DNA from: Candidatus Omnitrophota bacterium
GTDB lineage: Bacteria; Omnitrophota; Gorgyraeia; Zapsychrales; JANLHA01
Direction: 5' to 3'
Length of the DNA stretch: 64,000 bases
Assembly: GCA_023247795.1 (NCBI GenBank)
Contig: JAHFFT010000001.1
Span: 2,868-66,867 of the forward strand
Shown: in pieces, positions 14,438 through 64,000 of the stretch
How positions within the stretch are numbered: position 1 is the stretch's first letter
Layout of the letters: every line of letters begins with the position of its first letter
Notes under the pieces: model-generated
Databases searched by the model: none
What the model was told of the DNA's origin: nothing
The model's input: only the letters and a program-made list of their open reading frames with translations
Made by a program: the position numbers and the translations under genes

Positions 14438-14483
14438 ACGGATTTGCTATGTCCAAAAAATTTATCCTAGAAGTCGGCTGGAA

Positions 14484-14513
14484 GAATTCCTCGCAGCTAG
14501 CTGCGAGGAATTC
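14484..14513. repeat. Perfect 30-bp palindrome of the CCTCGCAG...CTGCGAGG family
   Basis: GAATTCCTCGCAGCTAGCTGCGAGGAATTC is its own reverse complement. Confidence 0.9.
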
Positions 14514-14580
14514 GCTCGAGTAAAAACTGAAGATCAGAGGTATCGTGGTTTAACAGCAAGGATAAAATTCAATACTTAAC

Positions 14581-14670
14581 TCAAGTCTCATGTCTCATCT
14601 CATATCGCAGGTCGCAAGTCATTTGTAACTTGCGACTTGGTACCTGGGACTTGTTACTTTGTCACTTCGC
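14581..14670. repeat. 3'-UTR repeat block: hairpin plus ACTTG/CAAGT heptad units
   Basis: GTCGCAAGT-CATTTGTA-ACTTGCGAC hairpin (14611..14636). ACTTG-type units at 14628, 14635, 14649, 14656 and 14663. The block lies directly after the stop at 14678. Confidence 0.6.
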
Positions 14671-14677
14671 CGTGATG

Positions 14678-15778: not shown

Positions 15779-15816
15779 TGTTTGTTCCTTTCCTTAATAT
15801 TAAACGCCTGTTCAAT

Positions 15817-15845
15817 AAAAAAACCTATTCCCCAAAGAGAATAGG
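15817..15845 (-). terminator. Intrinsic terminator (riboswitch expression platform)
   Basis: Minus-strand RNA is CCUAUUC-UCUUUGGG-GAAUAGG followed by U7. It lies between the aptamer and the SD/ATG of 14678..15778. Confidence 0.75.
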
Positions 15846-15859
15846 CTTAATTCAAAACA

Positions 15860-15945
15860 CTTGATTCGGTAATCAGGCTATCCTCTCTTAAAGGACCCTT
15901 GACTTTGCGCCCCACTGTTACCAGTGGTTTGCCTTTTCGTCAGAC
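15860..15945 (-). promoter_or_regulatory. c-di-GMP-I (GEMM-I) riboswitch aptamer
   Basis: Minus-strand RNA is ACGAAAAGGCAAACCACUG-GUAA-CAGUGGGGCGCAAAGUCAAGGGUCC...GGAUAGCCUGAUUACCGAA. This carries the GGCAAACC / GNRA-capped hairpin / GCGCAAAG / UUACCGA core of GEMM-I. Confidence 0.8.
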
Positions 15946-19000: not shown

Positions 19001-22000
19001 AATTTTTTTGTCCGAAAGCGTAAACGCGCTTTTCCACGCAACACCGATGCCATTTTTCGATTTCAAATCTTGAATCTGAAACCGATACCCTTGCTGTTCA
19101 CTGCCCAAAACTTGAACTGAAAAATTCCTTCCCGAAAGCTTATCGTCATTCGCGAATAATAGCTCTGCCCCAGCACCCCTACCAACGATAAATTCCTTAC
19201 CTACGCTAAATGCCCTCACATCCCCAGCTAGTGCTGTGTCAATTGTTTTATCTGGAAACGCCTGTAGGTAGGCACGATCACCCGCAACCCAAAGCCGATA
19301 CCAACCTGTTCCGGCTTGGATCCAAACATCATCAATCAACTCTTGCATTCCCGTATCCAAGACCTTCTCTTCCCTCGTTTTCATATTTCTATCGTCTAAG
19401 ACTTGATCTTTAGTTTTGACCATCCTTTCCCATTCCACGGTGATGGATCTATCTGTATAAGTCCCTGTCTTAACTCGATAATTCTCTGTCCCTGGAATAG
19501 GGTCTACGACGATATAACAATGTTCCGATTGAAGGTTGGGATCATTCGGGAAATAAAGTTCATCGATCTGCTTATTTTTTCCAAAAGCATGGAGCTCTCC
19601 TAAACTTATTTTGTAAACTTTCGATTCGTTTGAGGGCGGACCATTCTTGATGTCATGCTGCAGGACCCGGACCTGGTTGTTCACAACCCGAATACTGTAC
19701 CAAAATTTTCCACCCTCGGGCTGGATCCACTGGACCCTACCGGGCAACAAAACAAATTCAACCGGTGCCGGAGTTTGCGATTCTCCCCGCCTATTGTTCG
19801 TCGGAGCCAAAACAACCGGCTTGCCCGCTTTTGTTTTCATATACCTTGCTGTTGCTCCTACTTTGGGAGCTGAATTAACCACAGCAGCATTGTCCATCGA
19901 TCTTTGAATGCCAATCAGATTGGATAAATTCTGATAGACACGGTGATAAAATCTTGCGTCTTGAGGAAAAAAGTCGGAGTCATAAATAAGACGGTTTGCC
20001 CACCCCAATGATAACCAATCCTTTTTCCGCAATTCGCTCATGATTTCAGCCTTTTCCACGAGACTTAAAACTTTCTCTTGTTTGAAATAATTTAAGGCTG
20101 CGTCATAATCATTTTTTAAAAGCGCCCCTAACAATTTAAAAGTTGCGTCGTTTTCTTTAGAATCACTTTGCATTTCACGCAAATATTGCACCAAATGATC
20201 CGCAGAAACTTGTTGAGGATATCTCTCTTGTAATTTCGCTTTCACGCGATTTTTAACTCGCAAAAAATTTTCGGTCGCATGTTCACCAAGCAAATAAGAA
20301 CGCTGCAACTCAGGTGTTTTCATGAAATTGAGCATTAAAGCATTGTCCACCGTACCAAAATAAGGATGAGCCTCTAGCGCATCCATATAACTACTCATTT
20401 TAGCAACGACTGCATCAAAGTCGTCGAAATCACCAGCGCTATACCCATCCTTCATGAGTGCCTCGGCAATGCCCTCTATCATTCGATCTTCATCAGGATT
20501 TTGAGATTCCACTGCGGTACCGATGGTGCTGACTTTATCTTGACGACCCGCGTTGGAATCAAGCAGTTGCTCCCGGTCCTGCTCGGTATATGCCCCGGTC
20601 CCCGTTCGTTGATCCGCCGTGACCCATTCTGCCGGTTGTTCCAGCAGTCCTAACTGCTCTCTGGCCCGTTTGATTTTGACCCGCCCATTGATTTCACTCA
20701 GCTCGTGCTGTTCGACCGCCTCGGTCATATCGTCGCTGAAACCGAGGACAATCCACTCTCCCCGGACCTTATCGAAATAGTTGATCGCCTTGATCCCGGC
20801 CTTGGCTCCGGTTTTACTGCTCATATGGTTGATCACCCATTTATCAAAAACTTTTCCTAATTCTGTTTCTTTCGCCCCGCGATCAATGCGGATGACCTTG
20901 ACTTTGTAGTTTAAGTCCTTTTGATTGATAACTTGCTGCCCCTCATAATCCAAGGTCTCGCCTGCTGCCACCTGCTGCTCAATCGACGGAGAAGCTGTTG
21001 GCAAAAACCCATTCTGGTCAAGAAGCCCAACGATATGATTCAAAATCTGGTCTTCACTGGCGTTTTCAGGAAGTTTTTTCCCCTTGGCAACGGTGTTCAA
21101 CAAACGAATCATCCGGTTATAATAGGTTACCGGGGTGACAACCGCGGAGGCATTATAAACTTTTTGGTTTTCTAATTGCGCGGAGGTTAAATTCTGAGCT
21201 TCTGATGAGACATCAATGGTGGTGACACCACTAACCTCTGTTCCTTTAAATCCTCCGGAAAAATATTTCCTCGGGATGGAGGCTTGAAGATACGGATCAT
21301 AATCTTCTTTGATGTAGTTATAAACCCCCTGCTTGAAGGCCGCGATATACTGCTCATAAATCTGCTGTTGACCGTCCTTGTCATCTGAATCAACTCCGAC
21401 GACCTTATTTTTATCCACATAAATGCTGTCGAGAATGCTTTCGCGCAACTTCTTTTTGAACCAGGTCGCGAGGATCATGGCGTTGTAAATCTGGCGCAAT
21501 TGGGCAAAATTCTGACCTTCATTGACTTCTTTTTCGATCGTCGGTAAAACGATTTTCTTGACGATGTCTGAAGAAAAAGTACTGACGCTACCAACATCCG
21601 TGTTAGTCAATGACTCCGTCCCTAAATTTTTATTGCCTCGATTGGAATCCAGAGCGAGATAATCTTCTTCCAACATCACCTGCAAATGACTTTCAATCAC
21701 AAAAGCGGTCGCGCCATTTTCATAGACCCGGGCCTTGTCAGGAACAATCCAGACTTTATTGAAGGTATTGATCGGGACGTTGGTGGTACCATATTCCTGA
21801 TAGGCCTTTTCATAAATTTCCTTCCAAAACTGCGCACCCAGCTCTTTTTCCGGGTAGATCAAAGAGGCAGTGATTTGCTTTAACAGATAGTCCTGGGCCA
21901 AAAGATCGCGCCCCATCTCGGTCTGACCAAACTGTTCGGGAATGATCCGATTTTCTTCATAGGGCGACAAATTGACCCACAAGTCCTTTTCCGGGACCGT

Positions 22001-22300
22001 CAGGGTTGCTAAAAAATATTTGATCATCTTTTGCGATTCTTCCTTCAAGGCTTGATCAGACAGCGTTTGGTCCCCAGGTGTTACGATGAAATCAAACCGA
22101 AAAGGGTTATTAGGGAAAACCTTCACCCCCTTTAACAAGGCCGGCGCAAAGGCCTGGCTTAGCCCGACCATCGAGCCTGCCTGCGGAAGATTGAGCGGTT
22201 GAATTTGCGCGAAACCATTCCCGGGGCTGATCAGATTGAAAAAAAAAGTGAAAATAATCAGCAGATTGATACTTCGATATTTTTTGATTTGCTTTGCCAT
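16019..22300 (-). CDS. Giant secreted protein (2093 aa), function unknown; two FHA-like segments and a C-terminal domain shared with 60206..64000
   Basis: Single uninterrupted ORF. Signal peptide MAKQIKKYRSINLLIIFTFFFNLISPGNGFA. FHA-like stretches are encoded at ~19427..19600 and ~19033..19190 (FIVGRGAGAELLFANDDKLSGRNFSV...IQDLKSKNGIGVAW). The C-terminal sequence is VGGIDLNPENLELMIQNEGPAIKFDFDPEQIKNLQFDGFLPIIMEIKPVTNLPALIGK. Confidence 0.8.
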   Translation of the reverse strand: MAKQIKKYRSINLLIIFTFFFNLISPGNGFAQIQPLNLPQAGSMVGLSQAFAPALLKGVKVFPNNPFRFDFIVTPGDQTLSDQALKEESQKMIKYFLATLTVPEKDLWVNLSPYEENRIIPEQFGQTEMGRDLLAQDYLLKQITASLIYPEKELGAQFWKEIYEKAYQEYGTTNVPINTFNKVWIVPDKARVYENGATAFVIESHLQVMLEEDYLALDSNRGNKNLGTESLTNTDVGSVSTFSSDIVKKIVLPTIEKEVNEGQNFAQLRQIYNAMILATWFKKKLRESILDSIYVDKNKVVGVDSDDKDGQQQIYEQYIAAFKQGVYNYIKEDYDPYLQASIPRKYFSGGFKGTEVSGVTTIDVSSEAQNLTSAQLENQKVYNASAVVTPVTYYNRMIRLLNTVAKGKKLPENASEDQILNHIVGLLDQNGFLPTASPSIEQQVAAGETLDYEGQQVINQKDLNYKVKVIRIDRGAKETELGKVFDKWVINHMSSKTGAKAGIKAINYFDKVRGEWIVLGFSDDMTEAVEQHELSEINGRVKIKRAREQLGLLEQPAEWVTADQRTGTGAYTEQDREQLLDSNAGRQDKVSTIGTAVESQNPDEDRMIEGIAEALMKDGYSAGDFDDFDAVVAKMSSYMDALEAHPYFGTVDNALMLNFMKTPELQRSYLLGEHATENFLRVKNRVKAKLQERYPQQVSADHLVQYLREMQSDSKENDATFKLLGALLKNDYDAALNYFKQEKVLSLVEKAEIMSELRKKDWLSLGWANRLIYDSDFFPQDARFYHRVYQNLSNLIGIQRSMDNAAVVNSAPKVGATARYMKTKAGKPVVLAPTNNRRGESQTPAPVEFVLLPGRVQWIQPEGGKFWYSIRVVNNQVRVLQHDIKNGPPSNESKVYKISLGELHAFGKNKQIDELYFPNDPNLQSEHCYIVVDPIPGTENYRVKTGTYTDRSITVEWERMVKTKDQVLDDRNMKTREEKVLDTGMQELIDDVWIQAGTGWYRLWVAGDRAYLQAFPDKTIDTALAGDVRAFSVGKEFIVGRGAGAELLFANDDKLSGRNFSVQVLGSEQQGYRFQIQDLKSKNGIGVAWKSAFTLSDKKIQSLAINQRSRFHQSVEKVLITEAMHSEYTPTMLEGRIDDEGKIDFEPTHNDSVGDSYPFKIIATRCGRIFDPDSGNQRYVLQNNKMLKAMPEYLQRAVKFLVADANQDYLDEKKRIKESAQLTDDQKRLILAVILTQQKQLPQAVKILRGKGQQELTASQLITFDMIRRENKFSVNVQKLAAALREGLIAKILGKFEREPEVCTRYFARGMNSVRDQMDDEEAMFAMKKILESSEVVMEYFRQTVASDLERIEATRDDIAELLEAIDLHELDELEPESHVGRIYSRLVLLRESSRFTKLPIKEWSELKPVLAEIGKGFPVRTPKPGVDEDLTDFQQQTIAAIVEGHKESKSDIPLVPVPEAFEDEIEGTAGTEGTMAINEITKADIDRDRIKKTIKKRSPGNVLKIVVQNDEKERNRFKLDVDFPLAKIFQSDPDRYRNILNLIALALDIVLTTNPSDRADFFAQANRLAPVLTANGYHKFTQVPVRSILMTNAERRHELVLLKLQLKENFGQEEILKLERRIERLNTIMAIEVNDEMKKYFLGKDKDGILKLAEYIDQDFIRDVDKELGVKTEGDQADILALITHYLVLVYQFEKAEKVVDLKYVISELIYKYRSYKFSKAVELGRVKRLLIKKNKKAQWRRDEDRVIGEVNSGDYSFKVINAKDAPTKEAFARYVRQNRQNTTEGKPNLFLFHQAFFMHDRIYVLASRDNRMELYYSSDTYSTVTGQYKWKRQEAVMALFDPETGEIQRSWYAKPRSESAHDLSESASAQINQLIESKAFAVTNGESRQTAQEIVNWHLDLGLYFDPTGKVMVRDPETGKPVMAEDNAVQIDFARYPGWAGKAFDFGFGGVWDIAKNQVKKENGDSNDLDLLDQNLVLAPGMKDSFFLGNTNNPQVSAITIAPQNASSEVGGIDLNPENLELMIQNEGPAIKFDFDPEQIKNLQFDGFLPIIMEIKPVTNLPALIGKTVPPNEEQLSYHQETKRVKSLQEF

Positions 22301-26505: not shown

Positions 26506-27267
26506 TCAATGCTGGCTTAAGATCGGCTGTTTAAACCGCAGATCGATATAATTGATCTGATTCAAATCAAGGTTGCCCTGACTCAAAACCAAGGCCAGCT
26601 GTTGGAGTTTCGCTTCAACACGATCCCGATCCATAATCACCCTGACTTTATTGTCAAGGATCATCTGGATTTGCGATAAGCTTTCAATCTGAAAAGAAAC
26701 AATCTCAAATTTTTTAAGGTCTTCTTGCTCCCGCATCAACCGCATGATTCGCAAAGCAATTTCGATCTCTTTTGAATTCAGATGCTTACCCAAAACCGGC
26801 TGCTGCTCAAGTTTGACTCCATTGATGGTCGGCAGATCCGGATACCCCTTCGCATCAAAGGCGATCGCGTATCCCTGTTCATCGATCACCATGTCTTTGC
26901 CTCTGCTGGAAAAAACAGCGACCGGATCACGTCTTTTAGCAACGATATAAATTTTATCAGGGAACCGCCGGTAAACCTTAAGATCTTCCACGTTCGGGTA
27001 CTGCGTTTGCAGACGCCGATGGAGCTCCTTAAGATCCACGGAAAAAATATTCTTTCCCTCCAAGTAAGAAATTTGTTTGGGTTCAATGAATTGCAGCGAT
27101 GGCGCCAGCACAACCGCTTTGATTCTAAACATCTTGGCGTCTTTAAACGAGCGGACTGTACTTCGCGTTAGCGCCACGACCAAAAAAGCAAAAACCAAAA
27201 ACAGAATCAAAAACTTTAAAAACTTTGTTCCCAATGGAGCAGGCTTTTTATTTCCGCGTTTCGTCAT
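26506..27267 (-). CDS. ftsQ: Cell division protein FtsQ (POTRA domain)
   Basis: ATG 27267 gives an ATGA overlap with the murC-ddl stop. MTKRGNKKP... then TM FLKFLILFLVFAFLVVAL, followed by a POTRA-like region. The dcw position supports the call. Confidence 0.75.
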   Translation of the reverse strand: MTKRGNKKPAPLGTKFLKFLILFLVFAFLVVALTRSTVRSFKDAKMFRIKAVVLAPSLQFIEPKQISYLEGKNIFSVDLKELHRRLQTQYPNVEDLKVYRRFPDKIYIVAKRRDPVAVFSSRGKDMVIDEQGYAIAFDAKGYPDLPTINGVKLEQQPVLGKHLNSKEIEIALRIMRLMREQEDLKKFEIVSFQIESLSQIQMILDNKVRVIMDRDRVEAKLQQLALVLSQGNLDLNQINYIDLRFKQPILSQH

Positions 27268-29633
27268 AATAGGGCACTTAAATTTTGCAATACTTGCGTC
27301 CTTCTTTTGATGGCCAACCCAAGAATGGTCCAACACAGATCGTCAAAACTCAAACCTGCTTTTTGCGCGGCCATGGGCAAAAGGCTGGTCTCGGTGAAAC
27401 CCGGGATGGTATTGGCCTCCAAAAAATAACTTTGATTCTTTTCATCCAACATAAAGTCCATGCGGGCCAGATCCCTGGCTCCGATCATGGTGTAAATCGC
27501 GAGCGCTATCCTTTGCAGTTCCTGAGCTAATTCTGCCGGTAAATCCGCGGGTACCAGATATTCCGTGAGCCCTTTCTGATATTTGGCCTCGGAATCAAAA
27601 AATTCCCGTTTGGTCCTGATCTCGATCACCGGCAACGGTTCACCGTCGAGGATCCCAACCGTCACTTCCCGTCCCCGGATGTACTGTTCGACGATAACTT
27701 CATCGGCTAAGGCGGCGGCATCCTTCACAGCCTGATCATATTGTTCCGCGGTTCTCACAATGGCCACCCCAAAACTCGACCCTGCACATGCTGGCTTGAC
27801 CACCAACGGAAAAGCCATGCGGCACGCATCCAAAGAGTTCAAATCACGCACTGCGATCCGTTGATAAGCCGCCACGTTGATGTGTTGGCCGCTTACAAAA
27901 TCCTGCATTTTCCCTTTATGAAAAGCCAGCCGGCTTGGCCCTACGCCGGAACCGGTATAGACAAACTTCCCTTCTTCCAAAATCGTCTGCAACTGGCCGT
28001 CCTCGCCAAAATCGCCGTGCAGCGCGTTGAAAACAACATCGACCTCCTTTTCAAAAAGCAGGGATAAAATTGTTTTCCGATCGGTCGAAGTCAAATCAAA
28101 TGCGGAGACCCTGGCACCTTTTCTTTTCAAGGCTTCATAAATCGCTTTGCCTGATTTCAAAGAAACATCCCTTTCCGGAGAAACCCCGCCCATCACGACG
28201 GCAATATGGTCGGTCTGCTTGGAAGGACTGATCAACGACGCGGTCACCTGATCCGGCGATCTTCTTTCCTTAAGCCGCTGCACAAGGATATCTGATATCT
28301 GTGTGATGTCCCCCGCGCCCAGAGTCAGCACCAGATCACCGGGCTGAACGATTTTGAGAATGTGTTCGACAATCTGTTCTTTGCGTAAATAAATCGCTTC
28401 AGAAAAATCCCTGGCTTTCAGCCGGTCACAGATGTCCTGAGCGCTGATCTGATTATTATTTTCTTCACTCGCGGCATAGATATCGGTCACGATCAAGCGG
28501 TCCGTCAACATGAGACTACTGATGAATTCTTCCAACAAAAATTTCGTTCTGGAAAAACGATGCGGTTGAAAAATGGTGATGATCCGCTTTTTATTCAAAC
28601 TGCGCGCCGTCTTCAGCGTCTGTATGATCTCCGTCGGATGATGTCCGTAATCATCCACAACGCTGATGTCATCGACTTCCCCCTTCCATTGGAATCGGCG
28701 TTTGACGCCCTGGTAAATCTGCAGCGACTGCTGCATCATCGAAAAAGACAACTCCAATTCTAACCCGACCGCGATCGCGGCCAGAGAGTTAAGGATGTTA
28801 TGTTCTCCGGGAACGGCTAAGATCACCGGGCCCAACAAGCGGCCCTGCAAATAACAATCATATTGAGAATGGCCTCCACCGTCGGCGAGTTTTTGAATGT
28901 TGCGCGCCTGCAATTCATTATGATCTAAGAAACCATAGGTGAGGAACCGACGTGATGAGCGTTTCACAATACTCTTTAACGTTTCCTGATCTCCCCAGGC
29001 AATGACCTTTCCCTGCGGCTGGGTCTGCTGGATGAACTGTTGATACGCCCCGACGATATGCTGCAGGCTGCGATAATAATCCAGATGTTCCATGTCCAAA
29101 TTGGTGACCACCGAAAGGAAGGGATAAAAGCATAAAAACGTCCCATCACTTTCATCGATCTCAGCGACAAAATGTTTACCGCGGCCAACCCGGGCGTGAT
29201 TTTCGGTTCCGCGGATGATCCCGCCGACCGCCGTTGAAGGATCCAGCCCCGCGTGGATGAGCAGATTGGCAATCATTGCCGTCGTGGTGGTTTTCCCGTG
29301 CGCCCCGGCGATCGTTATCCCAATATATGTTTGCATCAATTCGGCAAGGCATTCCGCTCGTCTTAAAATCCGTAAATCCCTTCGTTTGGCCTCCTGCAAT
29401 TCCGGATTATCAAGGGAGACCGCCGAGGAATAAACAACCACCGGCGCCCCGTCGAGATTAGCGGCAGCATGACCGATGGCGATCCTGGCACCTTGTTCAC
29501 GCAGTTTCCGCACCATTTTATTTTCAGTAGTATCAGAGCCGCTCACCTGACAGCCCTGGCGCAGCATGAGCGAGGCAATCGTGCCGACCCCAATCCCGCC
29601 AATTCCGATGAAATGATATTTTTTCTCCATCAC
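27264..29633 (-). CDS. murC-ddl: Bifunctional UDP-N-acetylmuramate--L-alanine ligase / D-alanine--D-alanine ligase (MurC-Ddl fusion)
   Basis: MurC half: HFIGIGGIGVGTIA, GAHGKTTTTAMIA. From about aa 480 the Ddl half: IAVVMGGVSPERDVSLKSG, an ATP-grasp body, EANTIPGFTETSLLP. A single 789-aa ORF. Confidence 0.9.
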   Translation of the reverse strand: MMEKKYHFIGIGGIGVGTIASLMLRQGCQVSGSDTTENKMVRKLREQGARIAIGHAAANLDGAPVVVYSSAVSLDNPELQEAKRRDLRILRRAECLAELMQTYIGITIAGAHGKTTTTAMIANLLIHAGLDPSTAVGGIIRGTENHARVGRGKHFVAEIDESDGTFLCFYPFLSVVTNLDMEHLDYYRSLQHIVGAYQQFIQQTQPQGKVIAWGDQETLKSIVKRSSRRFLTYGFLDHNELQARNIQKLADGGGHSQYDCYLQGRLLGPVILAVPGEHNILNSLAAIAVGLELELSFSMMQQSLQIYQGVKRRFQWKGEVDDISVVDDYGHHPTEIIQTLKTARSLNKKRIITIFQPHRFSRTKFLLEEFISSLMLTDRLIVTDIYAASEENNNQISAQDICDRLKARDFSEAIYLRKEQIVEHILKIVQPGDLVLTLGAGDITQISDILVQRLKERRSPDQVTASLISPSKQTDHIAVVMGGVSPERDVSLKSGKAIYEALKRKGARVSAFDLTSTDRKTILSLLFEKEVDVVFNALHGDFGEDGQLQTILEEGKFVYTGSGVGPSRLAFHKGKMQDFVSGQHINVAAYQRIAVRDLNSLDACRMAFPLVVKPACAGSSFGVAIVRTAEQYDQAVKDAAALADEVIVEQYIRGREVTVGILDGEPLPVIEIRTKREFFDSEAKYQKGLTEYLVPADLPAELAQELQRIALAIYTMIGARDLARMDFMLDEKNQSYFLEANTIPGFTETSLLPMAAQKAGLSFDDLCWTILGLAIKRRTQVLQNLSALL

Positions 29634-55087: not shown

Positions 55088-56257
55088 CTAATGATAGTAT
55101 TGGGAAAAGAGATAAAAATTGCGGCCGATAGCGATGAGTAGAAAAATGACGATATTGATAACGAAGAAATCATAGACCGGCTTCCAAGGCTTCAAACCTT
55201 CGATCGATTTGAGAATGAAATAAAAGACGAGTGGCGAGAGAAAAAGCGTCAGACGCTCACCGGTAAACGGATACTTTTTAATGATTGACAAGATAAACAA
55301 TTCGCATAATAAAAAGGCTCCGATGACCCCTGCCGTTTGGACCTTGAACTTCTCTCTTACCATCGCGACTAGCCCAAACCTAACCAGGCCATAAAGAAAA
55401 AATGGGATCAAAAAACTGCTCCATTGAATAAATACTTTTTCTTTCCCATACCAAGTCGTAGCTAGCCGGCGCAGACCTTCCCAGAAACTTTCCATAAAGC
55501 AGCCAAAGGAATGCGTGCAGATAAAATAAGATTCCCAATATTCGATCAGCGGTTGATGGGTGGTCGAATATCGCAAATCGGTCAAATAAACAAAAACAAC
55601 AACCAGCCCGGTTAACAAGAAAAAAATTACGGCGGGCTGATCCAGCTTTGGGGACAGTCCCTTAAGGGACTGTCCCCCACCACGGATGATTTCTGCTAAA
55701 AAATTCAAAATCAGAATACCCATAAAAAAAATAGCGGCATAAGAAAACAGCAAGCAGAACGGCAGCAACCAAAAGAAATACCTTGGCTGTTTTCCGCCTA
55801 AAAGATAAAATGTAAAAATCCCAGCAACGAGAACATCCATACTGTACGGCTTAAATTCTGCAGCATAATAACCAAAAAAATAACTTCCCCCCATCATCGT
55901 CAGTGCCAAAGCATAACTGGTCTTGTCGATGAAAACCTGTCGAAAAATTTTCTGCCAGACCCAAAAAGCCAAAATCATCGCGACGAGTGGAAATAAACGC
56001 AAAACCGGAACCGGATAACCAAACGGCTGGCTGACCGCTTTGATCAACATGAGATAAACCCGCGGGAAGGCTTGGGAATGGTCCAACAGCCCTAAAAGCC
56101 CCGAATAAGAAAACCTTTGGATATTATCGAGAAGAAAAAGTTCATCCATCCATAAGGGACGAGCTGAAAAATAATGCAAAAGTGCCAATGCAAGAAACAG
56201 CGTCCAGCTGCCGATATCAATCCATCTTAGAGAAAGCCTCTGAGAGAATCTAACCAT
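55088..56257 (-). CDS. Polytopic membrane protein (possible GT-C-fold glycosyltransferase)
   Basis: About 11 hydrophobic segments. An acidic first-loop motif PLWMDELF resembles the GT-C DE/DD motifs. No other motif recognised. Confidence 0.4.
   Translation of the reverse strand: MVRFSQRLSLRWIDIGSWTLFLALALLHYFSARPLWMDELFLLDNIQRFSYSGLLGLLDHSQAFPRVYLMLIKAVSQPFGYPVPVLRLFPLVAMILAFWVWQKIFRQVFIDKTSYALALTMMGGSYFFGYYAAEFKPYSMDVLVAGIFTFYLLGGKQPRYFFWLLPFCLLFSYAAIFFMGILILNFLAEIIRGGGQSLKGLSPKLDQPAVIFFLLTGLVVVFVYLTDLRYSTTHQPLIEYWESYFICTHSFGCFMESFWEGLRRLATTWYGKEKVFIQWSSFLIPFFLYGLVRFGLVAMVREKFKVQTAGVIGAFLLCELFILSIIKKYPFTGERLTLFLSPLVFYFILKSIEGLKPWKPVYDFFVINIVIFLLIAIGRNFYLFSQYYH
55650..55677. repeat. Perfect 28-bp palindrome inside a coding sequence
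   Basis: GGGGACAGTCCCTTAAGGGACTGTCCCC is its own reverse complement and encodes GGQSLKGLSP within 55088..56257. A related GTCCCTAAAGGGAC lies at 46128..46141. Confidence 0.85.
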
Positions 56258-56301: not shown

Positions 56302-56335
56302 AAAAAACAACCCCGGGAGTTAAACCCCCGGGGTT
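56302..56335 (-). terminator. Intrinsic terminator after 56368..57024
   Basis: Minus-strand RNA is AACCCCGGGGGUUUAACUCCCGGGGUU followed by GUUUUUU. Confidence 0.8.
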
Positions 56336-56367
56336 GAAGCCAAAGGCGAACTTCGCCTTGAGCGAGG

Positions 56368-57024
56368 TTACTTCTTTGCAAAATACTTGGCTGCTTTATC
56401 TTTGCCGCCTAGCCCATAAGCCAGGGCAAGAGCAAGCACCACACCGCCAAAAAGAATATAGAACGGGGTGCCGACAAAGATCTCGCCGAACCCAAGTTCG
56501 ATGACCGTTACCTTGATGGCATAGATCGTAATGGCCCATCGAGTTACGCGTTCATAGATCTTTGGCTTGGGAAAACCGACGTGCGTGGTGATGACATAAA
56601 TGACGCTTGCAACCACCTTCGCTATGATTAAGCCCAACGCCAAAGCTAATACGGCTGCGACAACCTGCGGCAAATAAGCCACAGTGCCAGAGATCATGCC
56701 GCCCGACATCGTCACTCCGAGGTGATCAACCGTCATCAAAACAAAGATGACCATAACCACCAAGTGGACCAATGAAGCAACCAGATCACTGAATTTATGC
56801 TTTACCCCACCTTTATGAAGAGCCCCTGACAAGCCAATCTTGTCAGAAAGAATGTCAAACTTGAGCTCTGTCAATAATCGGTGAAAGATAACGCGCAGCA
56901 CTTTAGCCACAAAAATACCGACTAATAGAATTATTAGTGCGCTGACCAAAGTGGGGACGTAACTCGCTACCTTATAGACCATGTCTCGAAACGGTGACAG
57001 TAATAAAGTATCGATTGTAGTCAT
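56368..57024 (-). CDS. Small integral membrane protein with MscS-N-terminal-like conserved TM helices
   Basis: ATG 57024 is preceded by AAAGGAGGGG. The ORF-track start at 57081 would lie inside the leader terminator. LVSALIILLVGIFVAKVLRVIFHRLL resembles the conserved TM helix of mechanosensitive-channel N-termini. No MscS beta-domain is present. Confidence 0.6.
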   Translation of the reverse strand: MTTIDTLLLSPFRDMVYKVASYVPTLVSALIILLVGIFVAKVLRVIFHRLLTELKFDILSDKIGLSGALHKGGVKHKFSDLVASLVHLVVMVIFVLMTVDHLGVTMSGGMISGTVAYLPQVVAAVLALALGLIIAKVVASVIYVITTHVGFPKPKIYERVTRWAITIYAIKVTVIELGFGEIFVGTPFYILFGGVVLALALAYGLGGKDKAAKYFAKK

Positions 57025-57078
57025 TTTAATCCCCTCCTTTCTTTTAACCATTGCTGCCTGCATCATCAGCTGTCGTAA

Positions 57079-57112
57079 CAAAAAAGGCCCAGACTTTGAA
57101 TCGATCTGGACC
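57079..57112 (-). terminator. Intrinsic terminator (riboswitch expression platform)
   Basis: Minus-strand RNA is GGUCCAGA-UCGAUUCAAAG-UCUGGGCC followed by UUUUUUG. It lies upstream of the SD/ATG at 57024. Confidence 0.8.
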
Positions 57113-57143
57113 TTAGATATGCGTAAAATCAGTTGGACTGCTA

Positions 57144-57226
57144 TTGTTGCAGCCCGGCCACCATAGAAGTATCCTTAGGTCCGAGGCTTTGCGCCCTTAA
57201 GTTTCCTTAAGTTTGCCTTTCGAGAG
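57144..57226 (-). promoter_or_regulatory. c-di-GMP-I (GEMM-I) riboswitch aptamer
   Basis: Minus-strand RNA is CUCGAAAGGCAAACUUAAG-GAAA-CUUAAGGGCGCAAAGCCUCGGACCUAAGGAUACUUCUAUGGUGGCCGGGCUGCAAC. It has the GEMM-I core plus a GAAA tetraloop and both halves of the 11-nt tetraloop receptor (CCUAAG / UAUGG). Confidence 0.9.
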
Positions 57227-57267
57227 TCCTCCCCTACTTTTCTCACCTCTGAGAACCTCTCAATTAG

Positions 57268-57295
57268 AGCATATCACATTTTGGTGGTTTGACAA
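57268..57295 (-). promoter_or_regulatory. Candidate promoter for the riboswitch leader
   Basis: The minus strand reads TTGTCA - 16 nt - TATGCT, about 40 nt upstream of the aptamer. Confidence 0.3.
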
Positions 57296-57454
57296 GGTGG
57301 CTAGAGGGAATTAGACTAGAATCATAATATATTGAAAATAAATGAGTTATGGATTAGACATTTACAGATCCCTAAAATGAAGCATGCTCGCAACCAAAAT
57401 CGCGCCTCAAGAGAATCAAATGGGAGCCAAGTCCGGATCTGACTCACTTTTTAT

Positions 57455-57538: not shown

Positions 57539-58720
57539 TTATTCATTCAAAGATTGTATCCGTTGATAACAATCAAGAACATTCAGGTAGGAATGAATTG
57601 AAACATCTTCCCTGTTAAATTCATTTTTGCCTCCATAAACGACAGCCCGGCCCAACATATCTTTGCCAGCCAAACGCTTTAGAAAATCAAGGCCTTTAAA
57701 AAATTCCTCATGTATGGTCTGCCCCGCTTTGATTTCGACACTCATAATCCGGCGGGCCTTTTCGATGATCAGGTCCACCTCGCTGCCGTGATTATCCCTA
57801 AAAAAATAAAGCGGCGCCTCTCGCCCCTGCGACCAAAAATATTTCAAGAATTCAATGACCACAAAATTTTCAAACAAGGCACCCCGCAAAGGATCACGGC
57901 TCATCTGAGAAGACTTTTCGATCCCCAGCAAATATGCCGCGAGTCCGGTATCGTAAAAATACATTTTAGGGGCCTTAATGATCCTTTTCTTCCAATTACG
58001 GTAATAAGCTGGAAGCAAAAAAACCACATAGCTCGCTTCCAGAACAGACATCCATTCCTTGATCGTCGTATGCGAAACCCCTAAGTCATTGCTGATACTA
58101 GAGAGGTTAAGTATTTGACCGATCCGCCCGGCGCATAGTTTCAAAAATTTCTGGAATGAAGAAAGGTTCTTGACATTGATGACCTGCCGCACGTCCCGTT
58201 CCACATAGGTCGCGACATAGTCGCGCATCGCGTCGGAAGGGTCAATCTTTTGATCAAAAATCCTGGGGAAAAACCCTGTGTGGACAATGTCATCCGCTGT
58301 ACGCTTTTGGATCAAAGAACGGATTTCCTCCACCGAAAAGGGCAAAAGTTTCAGGACGGCCGTACGGCCGGCCAAAGACTGCCGAATGGACCGCAATAAC
58401 AAAAGGTTCTGACTACCACTGAGAATATACAGACCATTTTTGTTACGTTCATCGACAATCCCCTGAAGATAAGAAAGGATTTCCGGGACCCGTTGGACTT
58501 CATCCAGAATAGCTCCTTCAGGATAACGGCCCAGAAACCCCCTGGGATCCTGCATGGCTAGTTCACGAATATCCGGAATCTCAAAAGAAAGATAAGATTT
58601 TTTGGGGAAAACTTTACGGCACAACGTGGTTTTGCCGGATTGCCTAGGCCCGGTCACCGAAACAACCGGATAATGTCTGGCGGATTCCCTGAGTTTGGCT
58701 TCAAGAATTCTAGTGATCAT
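57539..58720 (-). CDS. AAA+ ATPase with C-terminal PD-(D/E)xK nuclease-like domain (AAA_14/DUF4143-type architecture)
   Basis: ATG 58720 gives MITRILEAKL. Walker A GPRQSGKTT, Walker B AILDEVQRVPE, and C-terminal GSEVDLII...MSVEIKAG (D...ExK). The ORF-track extension to 58864 reads through repeat copy 2. Confidence 0.75.
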   Translation of the reverse strand: MITRILEAKLRESARHYPVVSVTGPRQSGKTTLCRKVFPKKSYLSFEIPDIRELAMQDPRGFLGRYPEGAILDEVQRVPEILSYLQGIVDERNKNGLYILSGSQNLLLLRSIRQSLAGRTAVLKLLPFSVEEIRSLIQKRTADDIVHTGFFPRIFDQKIDPSDAMRDYVATYVERDVRQVINVKNLSSFQKFLKLCAGRIGQILNLSSISNDLGVSHTTIKEWMSVLEASYVVFLLPAYYRNWKKRIIKAPKMYFYDTGLAAYLLGIEKSSQMSRDPLRGALFENFVVIEFLKYFWSQGREAPLYFFRDNHGSEVDLIIEKARRIMSVEIKAGQTIHEEFFKGLDFLKRLAGKDMLGRAVVYGGKNEFNREDVSIHSYLNVLDCYQRIQSLNE

Positions 58721-58791
58721 AAATAAACCATACCACATCTTGTACAGTTTGCAAGTTAAATATTCAATTAGTACAGATTTGTTCTCAAACC

Positions 58792-58909
58792 TTAATTCCC
58801 AAAAAGGTCGACAGATCGTAAAGCGGCTGGACATTGATGATGACCGGGACAAAACCTGGAGCATTTTGCAATTGTTTGAGCAGGGCGGGATCGAGATGAA
58901 ATTGGATTT
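58792..58909 (-). repeat. Orphan copy 2 of the 3' end of gene 60206..64000 (118 bp, about 89 percent identical by hand count)
   Basis: Aligns base for base with 60210..60327, with 13 mismatches by my count. It retains the frame KIQFHLDPALLKQLQNAPGFVPVIINVQPLYDLSTFLGIKV-stop. No homologous sequence lies upstream of it. Confidence 0.85.
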
Positions 58910-58976
58910 TTATGGAATACACAATTCTTCGGTTGTTTTAAAAATATTATTGACAAAGGCTCCATATTCGTCGAAA

Positions 58977-60161
58977 ATGGAGTCTATGCAATACATATTA
59001 AGACTGACCGAAAACGATATCCAAAACTCTTTACAACGCAATAAAAGTGTTTTATTGTTGGGCGCTCGTCAAACCGGTAAAACAACCCTCATTCAGCGGC
59101 TGCCGGCCGACTTGTCGATTTCCTTTGTCCGTCCGGATGTCAGGCAGCAATACGAAAAAAACTCCACGCTTTTAGTGGGAGAAGTTGAAGCACTAAAGAG
59201 CAAAACGCCCGCGGCTCGCCCCTTGGTTGTTTTAGATGAGGTCCAGCGTGTCCCAGAAATACTCGACATCGTTCAGGATCTCATTGATCGAAAAATAGCC
59301 AACTTTATTTTAACCGGATCCTCCGCAAGAAAATTACGCCATGGATCTCACATCAACCTTCTTCCGGGAAGAGTGACGGCTTTAAAACTAAATCCACTTA
59401 ACATTCAAGAAATTCCGCAAACAGATCTTAAAACGCATTTGCTCTACGGCTCTTTGCCGGCTATTCATCAGGTTACTTCACTGAAAGACAAAGAAATCGA
59501 CCTAAGCTCTTATGTCATCACCTACCTCGAGGAAGAAATCCGTGCCGAAGCGATTGTTAGAAATTTAGGGCCGTTTGCCCGCTTTCTGGAATCAGCGGCT
59601 ATTGAATCAGGAAAGGTCGTGAACTTCAGAAAACTTTCTCAAGAAATCGGTGTTGCCCACACAACCATTGCCTCTTATTATCAAATTTTGGAAGACTGCC
59701 TGATTGTCGAAAAAATAATGCCACTGACAAAAAGCGAAACACGCAAAAAGCTGACCAAAACCCATAAATATATCTTTTTCGATATGGGCGTTCGACGGCT
59801 CACCGCGCATCAAAATACTCAATTGACCAAAGAAATGTGGGGATATCTGTTCGAACAATTCATTGGACTTCAGCTCATTCAACTAGCCGAGCTCTCCGAT
59901 AAAAATATCCAGATCAAATTTTGGCGAGATCCCGATGGCCCGGAAGTAGACTTTATTGTCGACAACAATCATAGCTACTTGCCTCTAGAAGTCAAATGGA
60001 CAAAAAGCCCTACAGCAAAAGACGTTAAACATCTGAAAGTATTCTTAAATGAATATCCCAATGCTAAACAAGCCTATCTCATCTGCCAATGTGAGCGGGA
60101 TGTTGCCCTTGAAAAAAACATTACCGCAATCCCCTGGCAAAAAATAAAAAATATTTTTTAA
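58977..60161 (+). CDS. AAA+ ATPase with C-terminal PD-(D/E)xK nuclease-like domain (second, divergent paralogue)
   Basis: ATG 58977 gives MESMQYILRL. Walker A GARQTGKTT, Walker B VVLDEVQRVPE, and C-terminal GPEVDFIV...LPLEVKW. The ORF-track start at 58695 is an antisense read-through of repeat copy 2. Confidence 0.75.
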   Translation: MESMQYILRLTENDIQNSLQRNKSVLLLGARQTGKTTLIQRLPADLSISFVRPDVRQQYEKNSTLLVGEVEALKSKTPAARPLVVLDEVQRVPEILDIVQDLIDRKIANFILTGSSARKLRHGSHINLLPGRVTALKLNPLNIQEIPQTDLKTHLLYGSLPAIHQVTSLKDKEIDLSSYVITYLEEEIRAEAIVRNLGPFARFLESAAIESGKVVNFRKLSQEIGVAHTTIASYYQILEDCLIVEKIMPLTKSETRKKLTKTHKYIFFDMGVRRLTAHQNTQLTKEMWGYLFEQFIGLQLIQLAELSDKNIQIKFWRDPDGPEVDFIVDNNHSYLPLEVKWTKSPTAKDVKHLKVFLNEYPNAKQAYLICQCERDVALEKNITAIPWQKIKNIF

Positions 60162-60205: not shown

Positions 60206-63200
60206 CTATTTAATTCCCAAAAAGGCCAATAAATCGTACAGCGGCTGGACATTGATGATGACGGGGACAAAACCCGGGGCATCTTGCAGTTGCTTGAGTA
60301 GGGCGGGATCAAGATGAAATTGGATTTCACCGTTCTGATTTACTTTCAGGTTCATTTTGTTAGGATCGAAATCAATACCACCAAGCTGATCAGGACGATC
60401 CGACATCTCCGGTGCTGCGTCCTCACCTAACATCAACCGATCCGACGCTCCTCCGCCATTGGGCTTCTGATTTTGTAAACTGTCCTCTGCATTACTTTGC
60501 ACTTCTCTAATTTTAGCTTCAATGCGATTGACCGCGTCAGGGTACAATTTACCTTCAACGAAATCGGCCTCATTCAAAGGAACCCAATATTTCGCTTCAA
60601 TCTTCTCTATCCCAACACCGATTAAATCATTGGAATGGTTTTCAAAATGTTCACGCATCAATGCGAACGCATCGGCTGTAGATAAATATTTTATCATTTT
60701 AATAAAATCCACACTGCTGTTTATCGCAGCAACTTGCTTAGTTAGTCTTTCCTCGATATCCAATTCCATTAATTCTGTCTTGTCATCCAAGGTTGGCGTA
60801 TACTCCCCTAATTTTTGAATATATATTGTATGTTCTTTCCCTTCCTCAATGTCACAAGAATAGCCAATGTTGCGCAAAATAATTGATAATATTTCTTTAT
60901 CCTTATATTCACTGTCAAATAAAATGAACCAACCATCATTCTCAAGGACACGCATAACCTCTTTTAAGACCACCATAAAATCTTTGATCGAAATAAAATA
61001 TACCATCACAAAAGACTCGTTGATAATGTCTATGGACTGATTACTAAATGGTAGCCGACGGAGATCACCATTGACAAGCTGCACACCTGGCAACGATTGT
61101 TTAGGATCGATATCCATATCAATGCCTATCCCTTCTACTTGATCACCTAATTCTTTCCTAAGTTCGACCAACGCCCTGCCTTCTGGACCAGAACCCAAAT
61201 CTAAAACCCGCAATTTACCTGGCGCCTTTCGCGCCAGATGGTCTTTGATCAGCTCCAAATGTTTTAGCAAATAATCCGGTCTATTACTATCACGGGCATA
61301 TTTCTGATGAAACACCTCCCACAAAAAAATCTCGTCTTTCTCAAGAGTCCCCAATTCTTTCAGACGATTTATTAATCTTCCCACAATCTTACCTTGCAAA
61401 AGTTCTTGCATATTAAACTTTCTAAAATATTGGACCATAATCATGCCAAGATGTTCTGGGATTGGCTTTTGAATTCCACTGAAACGAAGCCATCCTTCGT
61501 TTAACAGTCGCACTTTTTCATCCATGCTCAAAGACTCCTCCCCCAATTTAACACTCAAAATTTCTGCGAATTTTTCAACATCATCTCCGGTCTCATTCAA
61601 TATTCCCTGAAATATATCCTGACCAAGCATTAGACGATCCGCTGTTTCTACAGTAGCAGACGGCTCCGCCAAATCCCTCATCGCCATTTCATCTAATATT
61701 TCAATAGAAGGATTCTTTGCCATCCTGATCTGCTCCGGCTCTAAAACCGCGATATGAATATTCCTACTCCCAAACATAACCGCATCTTCATCTTGCAGCT
61801 CTCTCAATCCTGTAAAAAATAAATTATCGTATGCTTTTCCCAAAAATTCTGTGACATTGACATATTCAGGATGCCGTTCAATGACATTCAAAGGTTTTCT
61901 GACATTCAAAAAAGCAGACATTAAAATCTTCTTTACTGTATTAGGGACATATAATTGCTCTCCATTAATTTTTATAAGATGACAATTAATTTTATTTGGT
62001 GCTAATCCATCAAATAAATCAGCAAGCTCTGATTGAACAAACAAATTCTTTCCATCAAAAACTACGATTCCAGGTTTCTTTGTAAACGATACCCGATCCA
62101 GATTCTCTGCGTTTTCGATAAATTCATTCCATTTTTTAAACACTGCAGGCGTATCGGTAAGATTAAACTTTTCTTTTAGCAGAGATAACATGCTTTTTAA
62201 AAATTTAAATCTAAAATAGCTAAATTCATTCACAACAAAATCTCGATCTGAAGAGAAATAAAATGCATGTCTTTCACCAAAATCAAAATTCCTGCGCGCA
62301 TTTTTATCAAATTCATTAAATTCCCTGCCAGTTCCATGATAAAAAATTTTGGGCTCACCGGTTTCGGCATCAATCATTTTCGAGGCTAATTCGGGATGAT
62401 TTATCCAATCTCCAAACCATGCGATAAAATCAGGATCTCTCACTTGTAAAAAATGTAGGAGCCCAAGTTTAGAGGGTTTGCCATTTGGCGCTTTCAATTC
62501 AACCACTTTTCCATCTTGAATTTTAATGTTTCCATTCAAAACTTCTCTATTAAAAATCTGCTTATAAATTTCTATATCAATATGATCATCATATCTTTCT
62601 GTCAATGTTGACAACATCAATCGATCAAATCGCCCAACTTCATCCGCTGTTTCTACAGCGGCAGGCGGCTCCGCCAGATCCCTCATCGCTTGATTGCGCT
62701 CGGTGATCTGCTGATCGAGATCAGCGCTGCTACGCATCTCGATTCGATAGACCATTGCTTGCTCGCTTATCATCTCTTCAACCACTTTTTGGAATAAAAC
62801 CGCTGTCTCCGGCGAAGAATGGATGACCCTTCTGTAAATCTCCCTCTGATTTTTATCATTAATCCGCCAATAGGAAACATATCTCCTTATGAACTCTTCC
62901 ATTGATAAATCCAAAGGAACCCACCCCCATTCCGATTCCGGCAATTGCCTGATGAACGCGATCGTCGCTGCCGGTAAATTCAATCGCCGCGGCAGAACCT
63001 CATTAAAAATGCTGTCGCGGGACGGACTTTCAACGCCAATGGTATCCGCAAATCGATCCAGATGGTATAAACGAAACAGCAAGGCTCCAAGATGATCATC
63101 TCTCTCTTTCATCAGCGCCCTTTCCACAGCAAAATCAAAAAATTCTGCATTCGCAACATTGATTCTCTGGGCAACAAACAGCTCTTTCATAATTTTTTGA

Positions 63201-64000
63201 TGACCTTTTCCAGCAAGTGATTGGTACACCTCCCAAAGCAATCGTACCTGCTGTTTTTCGTTCAAATGTCTTAAAGGGATAAGTTGCTGAAGTCGTCTCG
63301 CCAGTTCCTCAAAATTCCTTGCCGTCATAATTGGATAAATCAATGTGGATGAAGACAGCCCCATCAATTCCGCGATCTTTGTATAAGCCCTTATCAGATC
63401 TCGATAATCTTTTGCCTTTTTAAAAAGTATTTTTTTTCGCGTGTAAATTAAGCTATACGGTGAGACGCTGCTCAAATCGCGATTCTCCAATGCATAAGCA
63501 ATGATTTCATCTTTAAAACGTTTAAAGGCATCGAATTCCGCGTCAAACATCTCAGGAGTTTGATTTGGATTGACATTGATTTTCCTTAAAACATTTTTTC
63601 TAAAAAAATAATTGTGAAGTTCATGATGAAATTCGTGTCTTGAGGTACTGTCGTCTTTAAAAATTTTGGTTTCTTGCAAGCTTTTGGCTAATTTGGGCCT
63701 TGGTAATAGCATAAACCCCACATCTCTGCTATTACTGCTCATAAAACAAACAGCCACTCCATTAAAAATAAATAATTTTTGATCACGGAGCAATTCAAAA
63801 AAAGGATCTTCAACTTCCAGCATAAACACACCCGGTTTGATTTCGATCAAAACTCCAGCTTTCCGATTTGCTTGGACGTCGCTCGGGCCAATCTGATATT
63901 GTTTAATGAACTCTAAAACCTGTTTCAAATCTTCCGCAATCTTCTTTGCTCCCCTATTGAAACCATTTGCAATGATAGCAACTGACAGAAAATACAATAC
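60206..64000 (-). CDS. Large modular protein (at least 1263 aa; 5' end probably beyond the right window edge): HExxH module, YHGT ART-like module, class-I SAM methyltransferase module, shared C-terminal domain
   Basis: The frame is open to the window edge, and the track start is a TTG 3 nt from the edge. HEFHHELH at ~63614..63640. FYHGTGREF at ~62331..62345 and AFYFSSDRDF...SY at ~62247..62266. VLDLGSGPEG at 61179..61207. C-terminal LGGIDFDPNKMNLKVNQNGEIQFHLDPALLKQLQDAPGFVPVIINVQPLYDLLAFLGIK at 60209..60388. Confidence 0.8.
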   Translation of the reverse strand, partial: VLYFLSVAIIANGFNRGAKKIAEDLKQVLEFIKQYQIGPSDVQANRKAGVLIEIKPGVFMLEVEDPFFELLRDQKLFIFNGVAVCFMSSNSRDVGFMLLPRPKLAKSLQETKIFKDDSTSRHEFHHELHNYFFRKNVLRKINVNPNQTPEMFDAEFDAFKRFKDEIIAYALENRDLSSVSPYSLIYTRKKILFKKAKDYRDLIRAYTKIAELMGLSSSTLIYPIMTARNFEELARRLQQLIPLRHLNEKQQVRLLWEVYQSLAGKGHQKIMKELFVAQRINVANAEFFDFAVERALMKERDDHLGALLFRLYHLDRFADTIGVESPSRDSIFNEVLPRRLNLPAATIAFIRQLPESEWGWVPLDLSMEEFIRRYVSYWRINDKNQREIYRRVIHSSPETAVLFQKVVEEMISEQAMVYRIEMRSSADLDQQITERNQAMRDLAEPPAAVETADEVGRFDRLMLSTLTERYDDHIDIEIYKQIFNREVLNGNIKIQDGKVVELKAPNGKPSKLGLLHFLQVRDPDFIAWFGDWINHPELASKMIDAETGEPKIFYHGTGREFNEFDKNARRNFDFGERHAFYFSSDRDFVVNEFSYFRFKFLKSMLSLLKEKFNLTDTPAVFKKWNEFIENAENLDRVSFTKKPGIVVFDGKNLFVQSELADLFDGLAPNKINCHLIKINGEQLYVPNTVKKILMSAFLNVRKPLNVIERHPEYVNVTEFLGKAYDNLFFTGLRELQDEDAVMFGSRNIHIAVLEPEQIRMAKNPSIEILDEMAMRDLAEPSATVETADRLMLGQDIFQGILNETGDDVEKFAEILSVKLGEESLSMDEKVRLLNEGWLRFSGIQKPIPEHLGMIMVQYFRKFNMQELLQGKIVGRLINRLKELGTLEKDEIFLWEVFHQKYARDSNRPDYLLKHLELIKDHLARKAPGKLRVLDLGSGPEGRALVELRKELGDQVEGIGIDMDIDPKQSLPGVQLVNGDLRRLPFSNQSIDIINESFVMVYFISIKDFMVVLKEVMRVLENDGWFILFDSEYKDKEILSIILRNIGYSCDIEEGKEHTIYIQKLGEYTPTLDDKTELMELDIEERLTKQVAAINSSVDFIKMIKYLSTADAFALMREHFENHSNDLIGVGIEKIEAKYWVPLNEADFVEGKLYPDAVNRIEAKIREVQSNAEDSLQNQKPNGGGASDRLMLGEDAAPEMSDRPDQLGGIDFDPNKMNLKVNQNGEIQFHLDPALLKQLQDAPGFVPVIINVQPLYDLLAFLGIK
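61637..62689. repeat. Intragenic ~49-bp direct repeat encoding the inter-module linker
   Basis: 62641..62689 and 61637..61685 (CCGCTGTTTCTACAG..GCAG.CGGCTCCGCCA.ATCCCTCATCGC) encode AMRDLAEP(P/S)A(A/T)VETAD, each followed by DRLML. A third DRLML is encoded at ~60428..60445. Confidence 0.8.

Follow-up and report, generated by a model that had tools for sequence, protein, structure and literature searches.

Is the untranslated leader ahead of a small membrane protein gene in Candidatus Omnitrophota a genuine riboswitch for cyclic di-guanosine monophosphate (c-di-GMP), and in which direction would it control the gene? The leader lies on the minus strand of a 64,000-nucleotide stretch of contig JAHFFT010000001.1 (assembly GCA_023247795.1), here called the window, and a preliminary description had read it as a c-di-GMP-I (GEMM-I) riboswitch followed by a terminator; the RNA at 57300..57020 reads exactly as quoted there. 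Combining covariance-model searches, folding and comparisons to homologous loci, we consider it highly probable that the locus comprises a c-di-GMP-I riboswitch and an intrinsic terminator ahead of a gene for an MscS-membrane-domain protein, predicted to operate as an OFF switch. When all 4227 families of Rfam were searched with cmscan over the full 64 kb, RF01051 (c-di-GMP-I, GEMM-I) was matched without truncation at 57227..57145 (minus strand), across positions 1-87 of the 87 in the model; the score of 73.4 bits (E 1.7e-12) is well above the gathering score of 35. This score is far beyond chance and confirms the identity that had been proposed.

The architecture of the element agrees with this assignment. 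P1a, the GNRA-capped hairpin pointed out previously, is stacked on a 2-bp GC:GC stem with AAA and GGC as internal-loop strands, giving the layout GC / AAA / CUUAAG-GAAA-CUUAAG / GGC / GC, followed by an AAA linker to the second hairpin; the pairs G21-C22 : G45-C46 correspond to 57216-57215 : 57192-57191. The second hairpin, P2, carries both halves of the 11-nt tetraloop receptor (CCUAAG at 57179..57174 and UAUGG at 57165..57161), and the GAAA loop is thus accompanied by its receptor, as had been described. Energy evaluation of the consensus structure gives -20.7 kcal/mol, and its two hairpins reappear in the minimum free energy (MFE) structure of the aptamer folded in isolation. Since the stems, internal loop, GNRA loop, linker and receptor are all present, the aptamer fits the published GEMM motif, in which P1 consists of 2-bp and 6-bp stems with a 3-nt internal loop and a GNRA loop, followed by an AAA linker and a receptor (PMC1950547). 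It is situated in the 5' untranslated region on the coding strand of the adjoining gene, where a promoter-like site, the aptamer, the terminator, the Shine-Dalgarno (SD) element and the ATG follow one another, all on the minus strand. Every feature of sequence and structure open to testing agrees, and by these features the aptamer genuinely belongs to the c-di-GMP-I family. With Vc2 of Vibrio cholerae (RF01051; PDB 3irw, cited in PMC6140456) it shares the two-hairpin aptamer with its GGCAAAC and CGCAAAGC core, the GAAA tetraloop with the 11-nt receptor, and G20, A47 and C92 (PMC6140456, PMC1950547), whereas the expression platform, the host phylum (Omnitrophota here) and the downstream gene differ.

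Which ligand is recognized depends on few positions. In the Rfam alignment, G20 of Vc2 corresponds to G57217, the last unpaired base ahead of the GC stem, A47 to A57190, the base following the closing GC pair, and C92 to C57149, the second base past the P2 3' end, all three in agreement with the RF01051 consensus. A47 contacts the ligand by intercalation. G20 pairs with G-alpha and C92 forms a Watson-Crick pair with G-beta of c-di-GMP, while sensors of 3'3'-cyclic GMP-AMP (3'3'-cGAMP) have A replacing G20 (PMC6140456). Since the contact bases are G20, A47 and C92, c-di-GMP, rather than 3'3'-cGAMP, is the expected ligand.

It is very improbable that the aptamer senses another cyclic dinucleotide, either 3'3'-cGAMP, the ligand of GEMM-Ib, or whatever compound the c-di-GMP-I-GGC variant (RF03167) recognizes. 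Single contact bases do distinguish the GEMM-I variants from each other, and an identical sequence on contig L081, which is short of the first few 5' bases, reaches 60.5 bits on RF03167 where the gathering score is 59. However, position 20 is a G in the window, whereas the GEMM-Ib riboswitches of Geobacter (Gs1761, pilM), which have the same fold and belong to the same Rfam clan, have an A at the equivalent of G57217 (PMC6140456). Similarly, RF03167, of the same clan, has a G after the closing GC pair (consensus GACGCGAAgCc) where the window has an A (GGCGCAAAGCC), and in the window RF01051 scores higher than RF03167. Membership in the variant was considered and dropped on account of this A.

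Downstream of the aptamer, the 8-bp hairpin and U6 tract that had been noted about 30 nt further on prove to be a real intrinsic terminator, located between the aptamer and the SD. Its arms GGUCCAGA (57112..57105) and UCUGGGCC (57093..57086) form 8 bp including one U-G pair, the flanking AA/UU lengthen the stem to 10-11 bp around a loop of 11 nt, and the structure evaluates to -15.0 kcal/mol in RNAfold; the stem begins 31-33 nt past the aptamer end. A consensus terminator scan missed it, its loop limit being 8 nt. Upstream, the promoter-like site has 9 of 12 consensus matches plus the TG, which implies a predicted transcription start near 57261; its -10 region aligns with the TATAGT of the leader of a homologous locus, L171, and the site coincides with the left boundary of the stretch singled out in the preliminary description. 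The SD and start codon proposed there are likewise in place, opening a reading frame of 218 amino acids (aa), and the SD element AAGAAAGGAGGGG is conserved in L171, L164, L168 and L162.

Table 1. Features of the riboswitch locus, in window coordinates.
Feature	Position	Strand	Basis
Promoter-like site: -35 TTGTCA (57295..57290), 16-nt spacer, TG-extended -10 TATGCT (57273..57268)	57268..57295	-	consensus scan
c-di-GMP-I (GEMM-I) aptamer	57145..57227	-	RF01051 full-length match
P1a hairpin CUUAAG-GAAA-CUUAAG with GNRA (GAAA) tetraloop cap	57196..57211	-	sequence and Rfam alignment
P2 (P1b) helix with 11-nt tetraloop receptor	57151..57188	-	Rfam alignment
Alternative hairpin GGGCUGC-AACAAUA-GCAGUCC	57135..57155	-	scan; -10.4 kcal/mol
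Predicted antiterminator: GGACCU..GGAUA (57182..57170, P2 5' strand) with UAUCU.AGGUCC (57119..57108, terminator 5' arm)	57108..57182	-	MFE
Intrinsic terminator AAGGUCCAGA-(11 nt)-UCUGGGCCUU, then U6 (57085..57080)	57080..57114	-	sequence and folding
Shine-Dalgarno AAAGGAGGGG, 6 nt ahead of ATG 57024	57031..57040	-	sequence
Regulated gene, 218-aa all-helical membrane protein	56368..57024	-	ATG 57024, stop ends 56368
Strong terminator past the gene, 13-bp stem then T run	56308..56336	-	terminator scan

How could the aptamer act on this terminator? When the aptamer is enforced in folding, an outer P1 helix, GGACU:AGUCC (57229..57225 with 57139..57135), and the terminator both form spontaneously, the terminator being present in every such fold. 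AGUCC also belongs to the 3' arm of the alternative hairpin, within a relay segment GCAGUCC (57141..57135) downstream of the aptamer, and once this hairpin forms, the aptamer loses C92 and the 3' strand of P2. The P2 5' strand can be paired with the terminator 5' arm in the predicted antiterminator, a duplex of -14.0 kcal/mol that is contained in the MFE structure of the whole leader. In stepwise folding, the aptamer is the MFE structure of the transcript to 57145, the hairpin GGGCUGC/GCAGUCC enters it once 57135 has been transcribed, the antiterminator is found for transcripts ending at 57108..57092, and the terminator becomes the equilibrium structure once the transcript has reached 57086. 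The P2 5' strand is the sole strand found able to compete with the terminator 5' arm, and it is sequestered in the ligand-bound aptamer; hence the ligand would favour termination, if control acts at the terminator. Given that condition, the folding makes an OFF switch reasonably probable.

The riboswitch Cd1 of Clostridioides difficile controls a flagellar operon, whereas the target here is a small membrane protein. Cd1 is a transcriptional OFF switch of the c-di-GMP-I class under kinetic control in a co-transcriptional window (PMC9262584), and the element described here is similar in that a class-I aptamer is followed by an intrinsic terminator, with the ligand predicted to favour termination kinetically; it differs in that its antiterminator uses the P2 5' strand via the relay hairpin 57155..57135. 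An ON switch, with c-di-GMP promoting read-through and the membrane protein being made at high c-di-GMP, is unlikely. Many GEMM-I elements are ON, and in 78 of 322 GEMM instances the terminator overlaps P2, so that the ligand prevents the terminator (PMC1950547). The hairpin 57155..57135 overlaps the P2 3' strand too, is followed by AACUGAUUUU, and was listed as terminator-like by the scan, but it has four U's only, after a 6-nt spacer. The strong terminator downstream, moreover, accompanies the aptamer in all folds that enforce the latter, no pairing emerged that would block this terminator in an aptamer-dependent manner, and L171 has OFF wiring as well. The energies of the alternative states, within ~3 kcal/mol of each other, leave room for an ON switch, and with three states so close they were dropped as a means of deciding between ON and OFF. 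Overall, the element resembles Cd1-type OFF switches more than the commonly drawn P2-overlapping terminators (PMC1950547).

The pairing of aptamer and gene recurs in L171, where the gene encodes a homologue with 46% protein identity and an RF01051 match of 38.9 bits is located 134 nt ahead of its start. The SD of this leader is identical to that in the window and its terminator (AGUCCAGA...UCUGGAUUUUUU) is related; terminators of the UCCAGA...UCUGGAUUUUUU type occur in the leaders of L171, L164, L168 and L169. According to folding, the P2 3' strand of L171 pairs with the terminator 5' arm as antiterminator, that is, the modelled switch employs the other P2 strand than the window with equal OFF logic. 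Compensatory changes separate the two sequences in P2 at two pairs (CGG:CCG to CGA:UCG, and ACC:GGU to GCC:GGC), and in P1a CUUAAG:CUUAAG stands against CUCAUC:GGUGAG, with the GAAA loop kept and three of six pairs changed on both sides while still pairing. Coming from two independent sequences, this provides modest covariation support for both helices.

We note that the aptamer of L171 also carries an insertion of ~44-48 nt (1985..2030), with the GAC strand of the internal loop on one side and the closing GC pair on the other; the insertion forms two extra hairpins, GUCCC-GAAA-GGGAC and CCCGCGG...GCGGG. L171 is therefore an unusual multi-helix elaboration of the GEMM-I core that still exceeds the RF01051 threshold.

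How far does the association with GEMM-I extend? Of eleven close homologues at 44-52% identity, considered along with the window's own protein, L171 alone gave an RF01051 match; L173 (53 nt upstream), P0008, P0010 and P0013 fall outside the upstream scan, and L168, with only 138 nt upstream of the gene before the contig end, cannot be judged. Rfam at the gathering threshold revealed no GEMM-I at 60 more distant homologue loci from GTDB genomes and JGI metagenomes, and regular-expression scans for the core, strict over 81 loci and looser over 161, found none adjoining a homologue except at L081, which has the same sequence as the window. Since both kinds of scan of the wider loci were negative, the GEMM-I link is confined to a narrow clade; the metagenome scan covered homologues of at most 41% identity, the closest clade not being among them. 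A terminator finder applied to the upstream 350 nt of 165 loci returned 10 matches, some of which may end the upstream gene, and its loop limit of 12 nt caused L164, L168 and L169 to be missed.

The leaders of several sister loci deserve separate mention. In L164 (2280..2500), L162 (1760..1925), L169 (2195..2320) and L168 (1..138), the -10 box (TATAGT/TATAAT) persists, as does the SD AAGAAAGGAGGGG. L162 has a different hairpin, AGGUGCGAAAGCACCUAUUUUC, in place of the UCCAGA-type terminator and retains GGAACCCUAGGAUAC, which resembles the P2 strand CGGACCUAAGGAUAC of the window, and in L168 the contig end falls inside an apparent P2 3' strand. Judged from these sequences, the sister leaders lacking the aptamer may represent decayed GEMM-I elements or hold a different sensor.

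Could the window aptamer itself be a non-regulating evolutionary relic, with the terminator acting as a constitutive attenuator? Aptamer loss appears to occur in the clade, because the sister leaders L164, L162 and L169 keep promoter, terminator and SD without a recognisable GEMM-I. Decay of this kind is nevertheless hard to reconcile with a score of 73.4 bits, all conserved core bases, the loop-receptor pair and both helices intact, and the compensatory pair changes between this leader and that of L171 point to selection on the structure. We therefore regard a relic as extremely improbable.

For the c-di-GMP-I switch with OFF wiring, we propose the following course of events. A sigma-70-type promoter near 57295..57268 would start an mRNA with a leader of ~237 nt. 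Bound c-di-GMP would be held by G20, A47 and C92 while the GAAA loop docks into its receptor, and P2 and the outer P1 (GGACU:AGUCC) would be locked; the terminator 5' arm, then without a competitor, would allow the terminator to form, and transcription would stop ahead of the gene. With no ligand, the downstream GCAGUCC would capture the P2 3' strand and free the P2 5' strand GGACCUAAGGAUA, which could pair with the emerging terminator 5' arm UAUCUAAGGUCC, and the polymerase would read through.

Several observations weigh against this proposal. The unconstrained MFE of -48.8 kcal/mol consists of the hairpin plus the terminator, compared to -47.0 kcal/mol for aptamer plus terminator and -45.6 kcal/mol for the antiterminator, so the terminator wins at equilibrium without ligand too, and the entire leader is not unusually stable (z = -1.15). 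An outer P1 directly adjoining the core, as in Vc2, is absent, the proposed P1 being 5 bp across an asymmetric loop. Independent examples of the riboswitch-gene pairing number two only, and six close loci (L162, L164, L165, L168, L169 and L172) gave no Rfam match at E <= 1. Finally, Pfam or NCBIfam scans of 24 proteins of the window revealed no c-di-GMP turnover genes. Because the terminator prevails at equilibrium even without ligand, control would have to be kinetic. From the modelled folding pathway, the unit is most likely a kinetically controlled OFF switch, in which high c-di-GMP would lower expression of the MscS-membrane-domain protein.

Control at the level of translation, alone or in addition, would require that in the read-through RNA the U tract and the terminator 3' arm pair with the AAAAGAAAGG region and occlude the SD depending on leader conformation. 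The whole-leader MFE indeed pairs CCUUUUUU with AAAAGAAAGG, adjoining the SD. This pairing is, however, weak and AU-rich and stems from a single MFE structure with an ensemble frequency of 0.0002; moreover, the SD is located 40 nt past a canonical terminator that alone suffices to explain control. Translational or dual control is accordingly distinctly improbable.

What, then, is the protein under control? The gene is the only one in its unit, as the 13-bp terminator at 56336..56308 directly follows it, making the unit monocistronic. In the public annotation the protein (P0001, 231 aa) begins 13 codons earlier, at 57063, which would be only ~17 nt past the U tract of the terminator; the start at 57024 is favoured by the N-termini of 23 aligned homologues and by the conserved SD. 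PF05552 (MS_channel_1st_1) is the sole Pfam family in the 218-aa protein (60.4 bits against a gathering score of 22, E 1.5e-16, in two stretches), and no match to PF00924, the MS_channel core, was obtained from Pfam at E <= 0.01. NCBIfam msc was matched at profile positions 74-216 of 365 with 75.3, below its cutoff of 100. The reading as an N-terminal MscS-like protein of about 218 aa without the channel body is thereby upheld, with a TM3a-like helix to be added. This helix emerges from the family profile, whose positions ~114-202, in the C-terminal half, align to residues 24-110 of E. coli MscS in many PDB entries (E 6e-6 to 1e-5), that is, to transmembrane helices TM1 and TM2 and the pore-lining helix TM3a, and a Gly/Ala-rich pore-helix-like segment, GGVVLALALAYGLGG, lies opposite AAGLAVGLA of MscS. 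An AlphaFold2 model (predicted confidence, pLDDT, 75) consists entirely of helices, and Foldseek with this model gave no significant PDB match, MscS 6vyk being ranked 33rd (E 9.7, 92 columns at a root-mean-square deviation of 2.0 A); with no significant match from the fold search, it is the sequence profile that supports the link to MscS.

In the N-terminal half, the TM1-TM2 unit is weakly repeated (BLASTP E 0.013). Going by these alignments, the protein is a duplicated MscS-type TM1-TM2 unit plus a TM3a-like Gly/Ala helix, without the cytoplasmic MscS domain. Relative to E. coli MscS (PDB 2oau, 6rld), with which the profile shares the TM1, TM2 and TM3a region, it has an extra N-terminal TM1-TM2 copy and is devoid of TM3b and the cytoplasmic beta/alpha-beta vestibule: in MscS channels TM3 is continuous with cytoplasmic beta and alpha-beta domains, whereas this protein ends at residue 218, 16 residues past the TM3a-like helix. 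Proteins of this kind are common, with 256 homologues at E <= 1e-5, PF05552 alone in all 120 among the matches listed, and 467 candidate stretches in GTDB representative genomes of many phyla encoding a relative; these stand-alone proteins of 215-235 aa form a large, uncharacterised family.

Such a target had been called unusual. As a membrane protein it fits the 'membranes' gene class that gave GEMM its name, whereas the PF05552 family is outside the published GEMM gene list (PMC1950547). Literature searches returned nothing mentioning PF05552 and nothing relevant on c-di-GMP riboswitch together with mechanosensitive, or on Omnitroph together with riboswitch.

The locus adds one more case to a well-known class of regulators and does not represent a new kind of system, as GEMM-I elements with terminators ahead of membrane or envelope genes have been known since 2007-2008. 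It nonetheless provides the first regulatory handle on the MscS-membrane-domain-only family. If the OFF prediction is true, these proteins would be needed when c-di-GMP is low, as is typical of motile or planktonic cells, which would give a testable hint on the role of the family in envelope or osmotic physiology. This functional hint, together with the aptamer-less sister leaders, represents a lead with some upside. That the stand-alone family constitutes a minimal tension-gated or solute-release pore, tied to a c-di-GMP lifestyle switch in Omnitrophota, with a diverged or different sensor in the sister leaders L164, L162 and L169, is an idea we hold to be a long shot.

Omnitrophota is an uncultured phylum whose regulation is known almost solely from sequence, and c-di-GMP riboswitch control is documented, at the level of predicted elements, at two sites in these 64 kb. 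The second GEMM-type aptamer is located at 15864..15942 (minus strand), where RF03167 is the best model (61.8 bits against 59); it has the standard G20, A47 and C92, a GUAA loop and no 11-nt receptor, and is followed by a terminator, AAGCCUAUUCUC...GGGAAUAGGUUUUUUU, at ~15847..15815. The genes downstream (15778..8896, minus strand) encode a 366-aa signal-peptide protein without a Pfam match, an Alginate_exp-like porin (12629..14269) and two TPR proteins, probably an envelope or export operon under c-di-GMP control, as far as gene content suggests. Immediately upstream of this riboswitch lies an open reading frame (ORF) of 2093 aa (16019..22300, minus strand) with no Pfam domain at E <= 0.001.

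The window otherwise represents ordinary chromosome, with ligA, a CCA-adding enzyme, ftsI, a murC-ddl fusion, ribF and a tRNA. The next relatives of its LigA, at 60-66% identity, assign the window to Candidatus Omnitrophota: those bearing a name are almost all Candidatus Omnitrophota or Omnitrophica, and one has the label 'hydrothermal vent metagenome'. The fusion is a 789-aa ORF (27264..29633, minus strand) joining MurC (UDP-N-acetylmuramate--L-alanine ligase) to Ddl (D-Ala--D-Ala ligase) within a cell-wall and division cluster. The region directly upstream of the riboswitch promoter looks, by its gene content, like a mobile-element or defence-type island: an ATPase with AAA_14 and DUF4143 was confirmed at 57539..58864 (minus strand), an ORF at 58695..60161 (plus strand) resembles it by eye only, the long-ORF coordinates of the two overlapping head to head, and at 60206..63997 (minus strand) a protein of >1263 aa with ART-PolyVal ADP-ribosyltransferase and class-I methyltransferase domains extends past the end of the window. 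On its other side, the regulated gene is directly followed, past its strong terminator, by one for a 389-aa multi-pass membrane protein without a Pfam or NCBIfam match (55088..56257, minus strand), and this neighbour is also present on two other contigs that carry the identical regulated gene.

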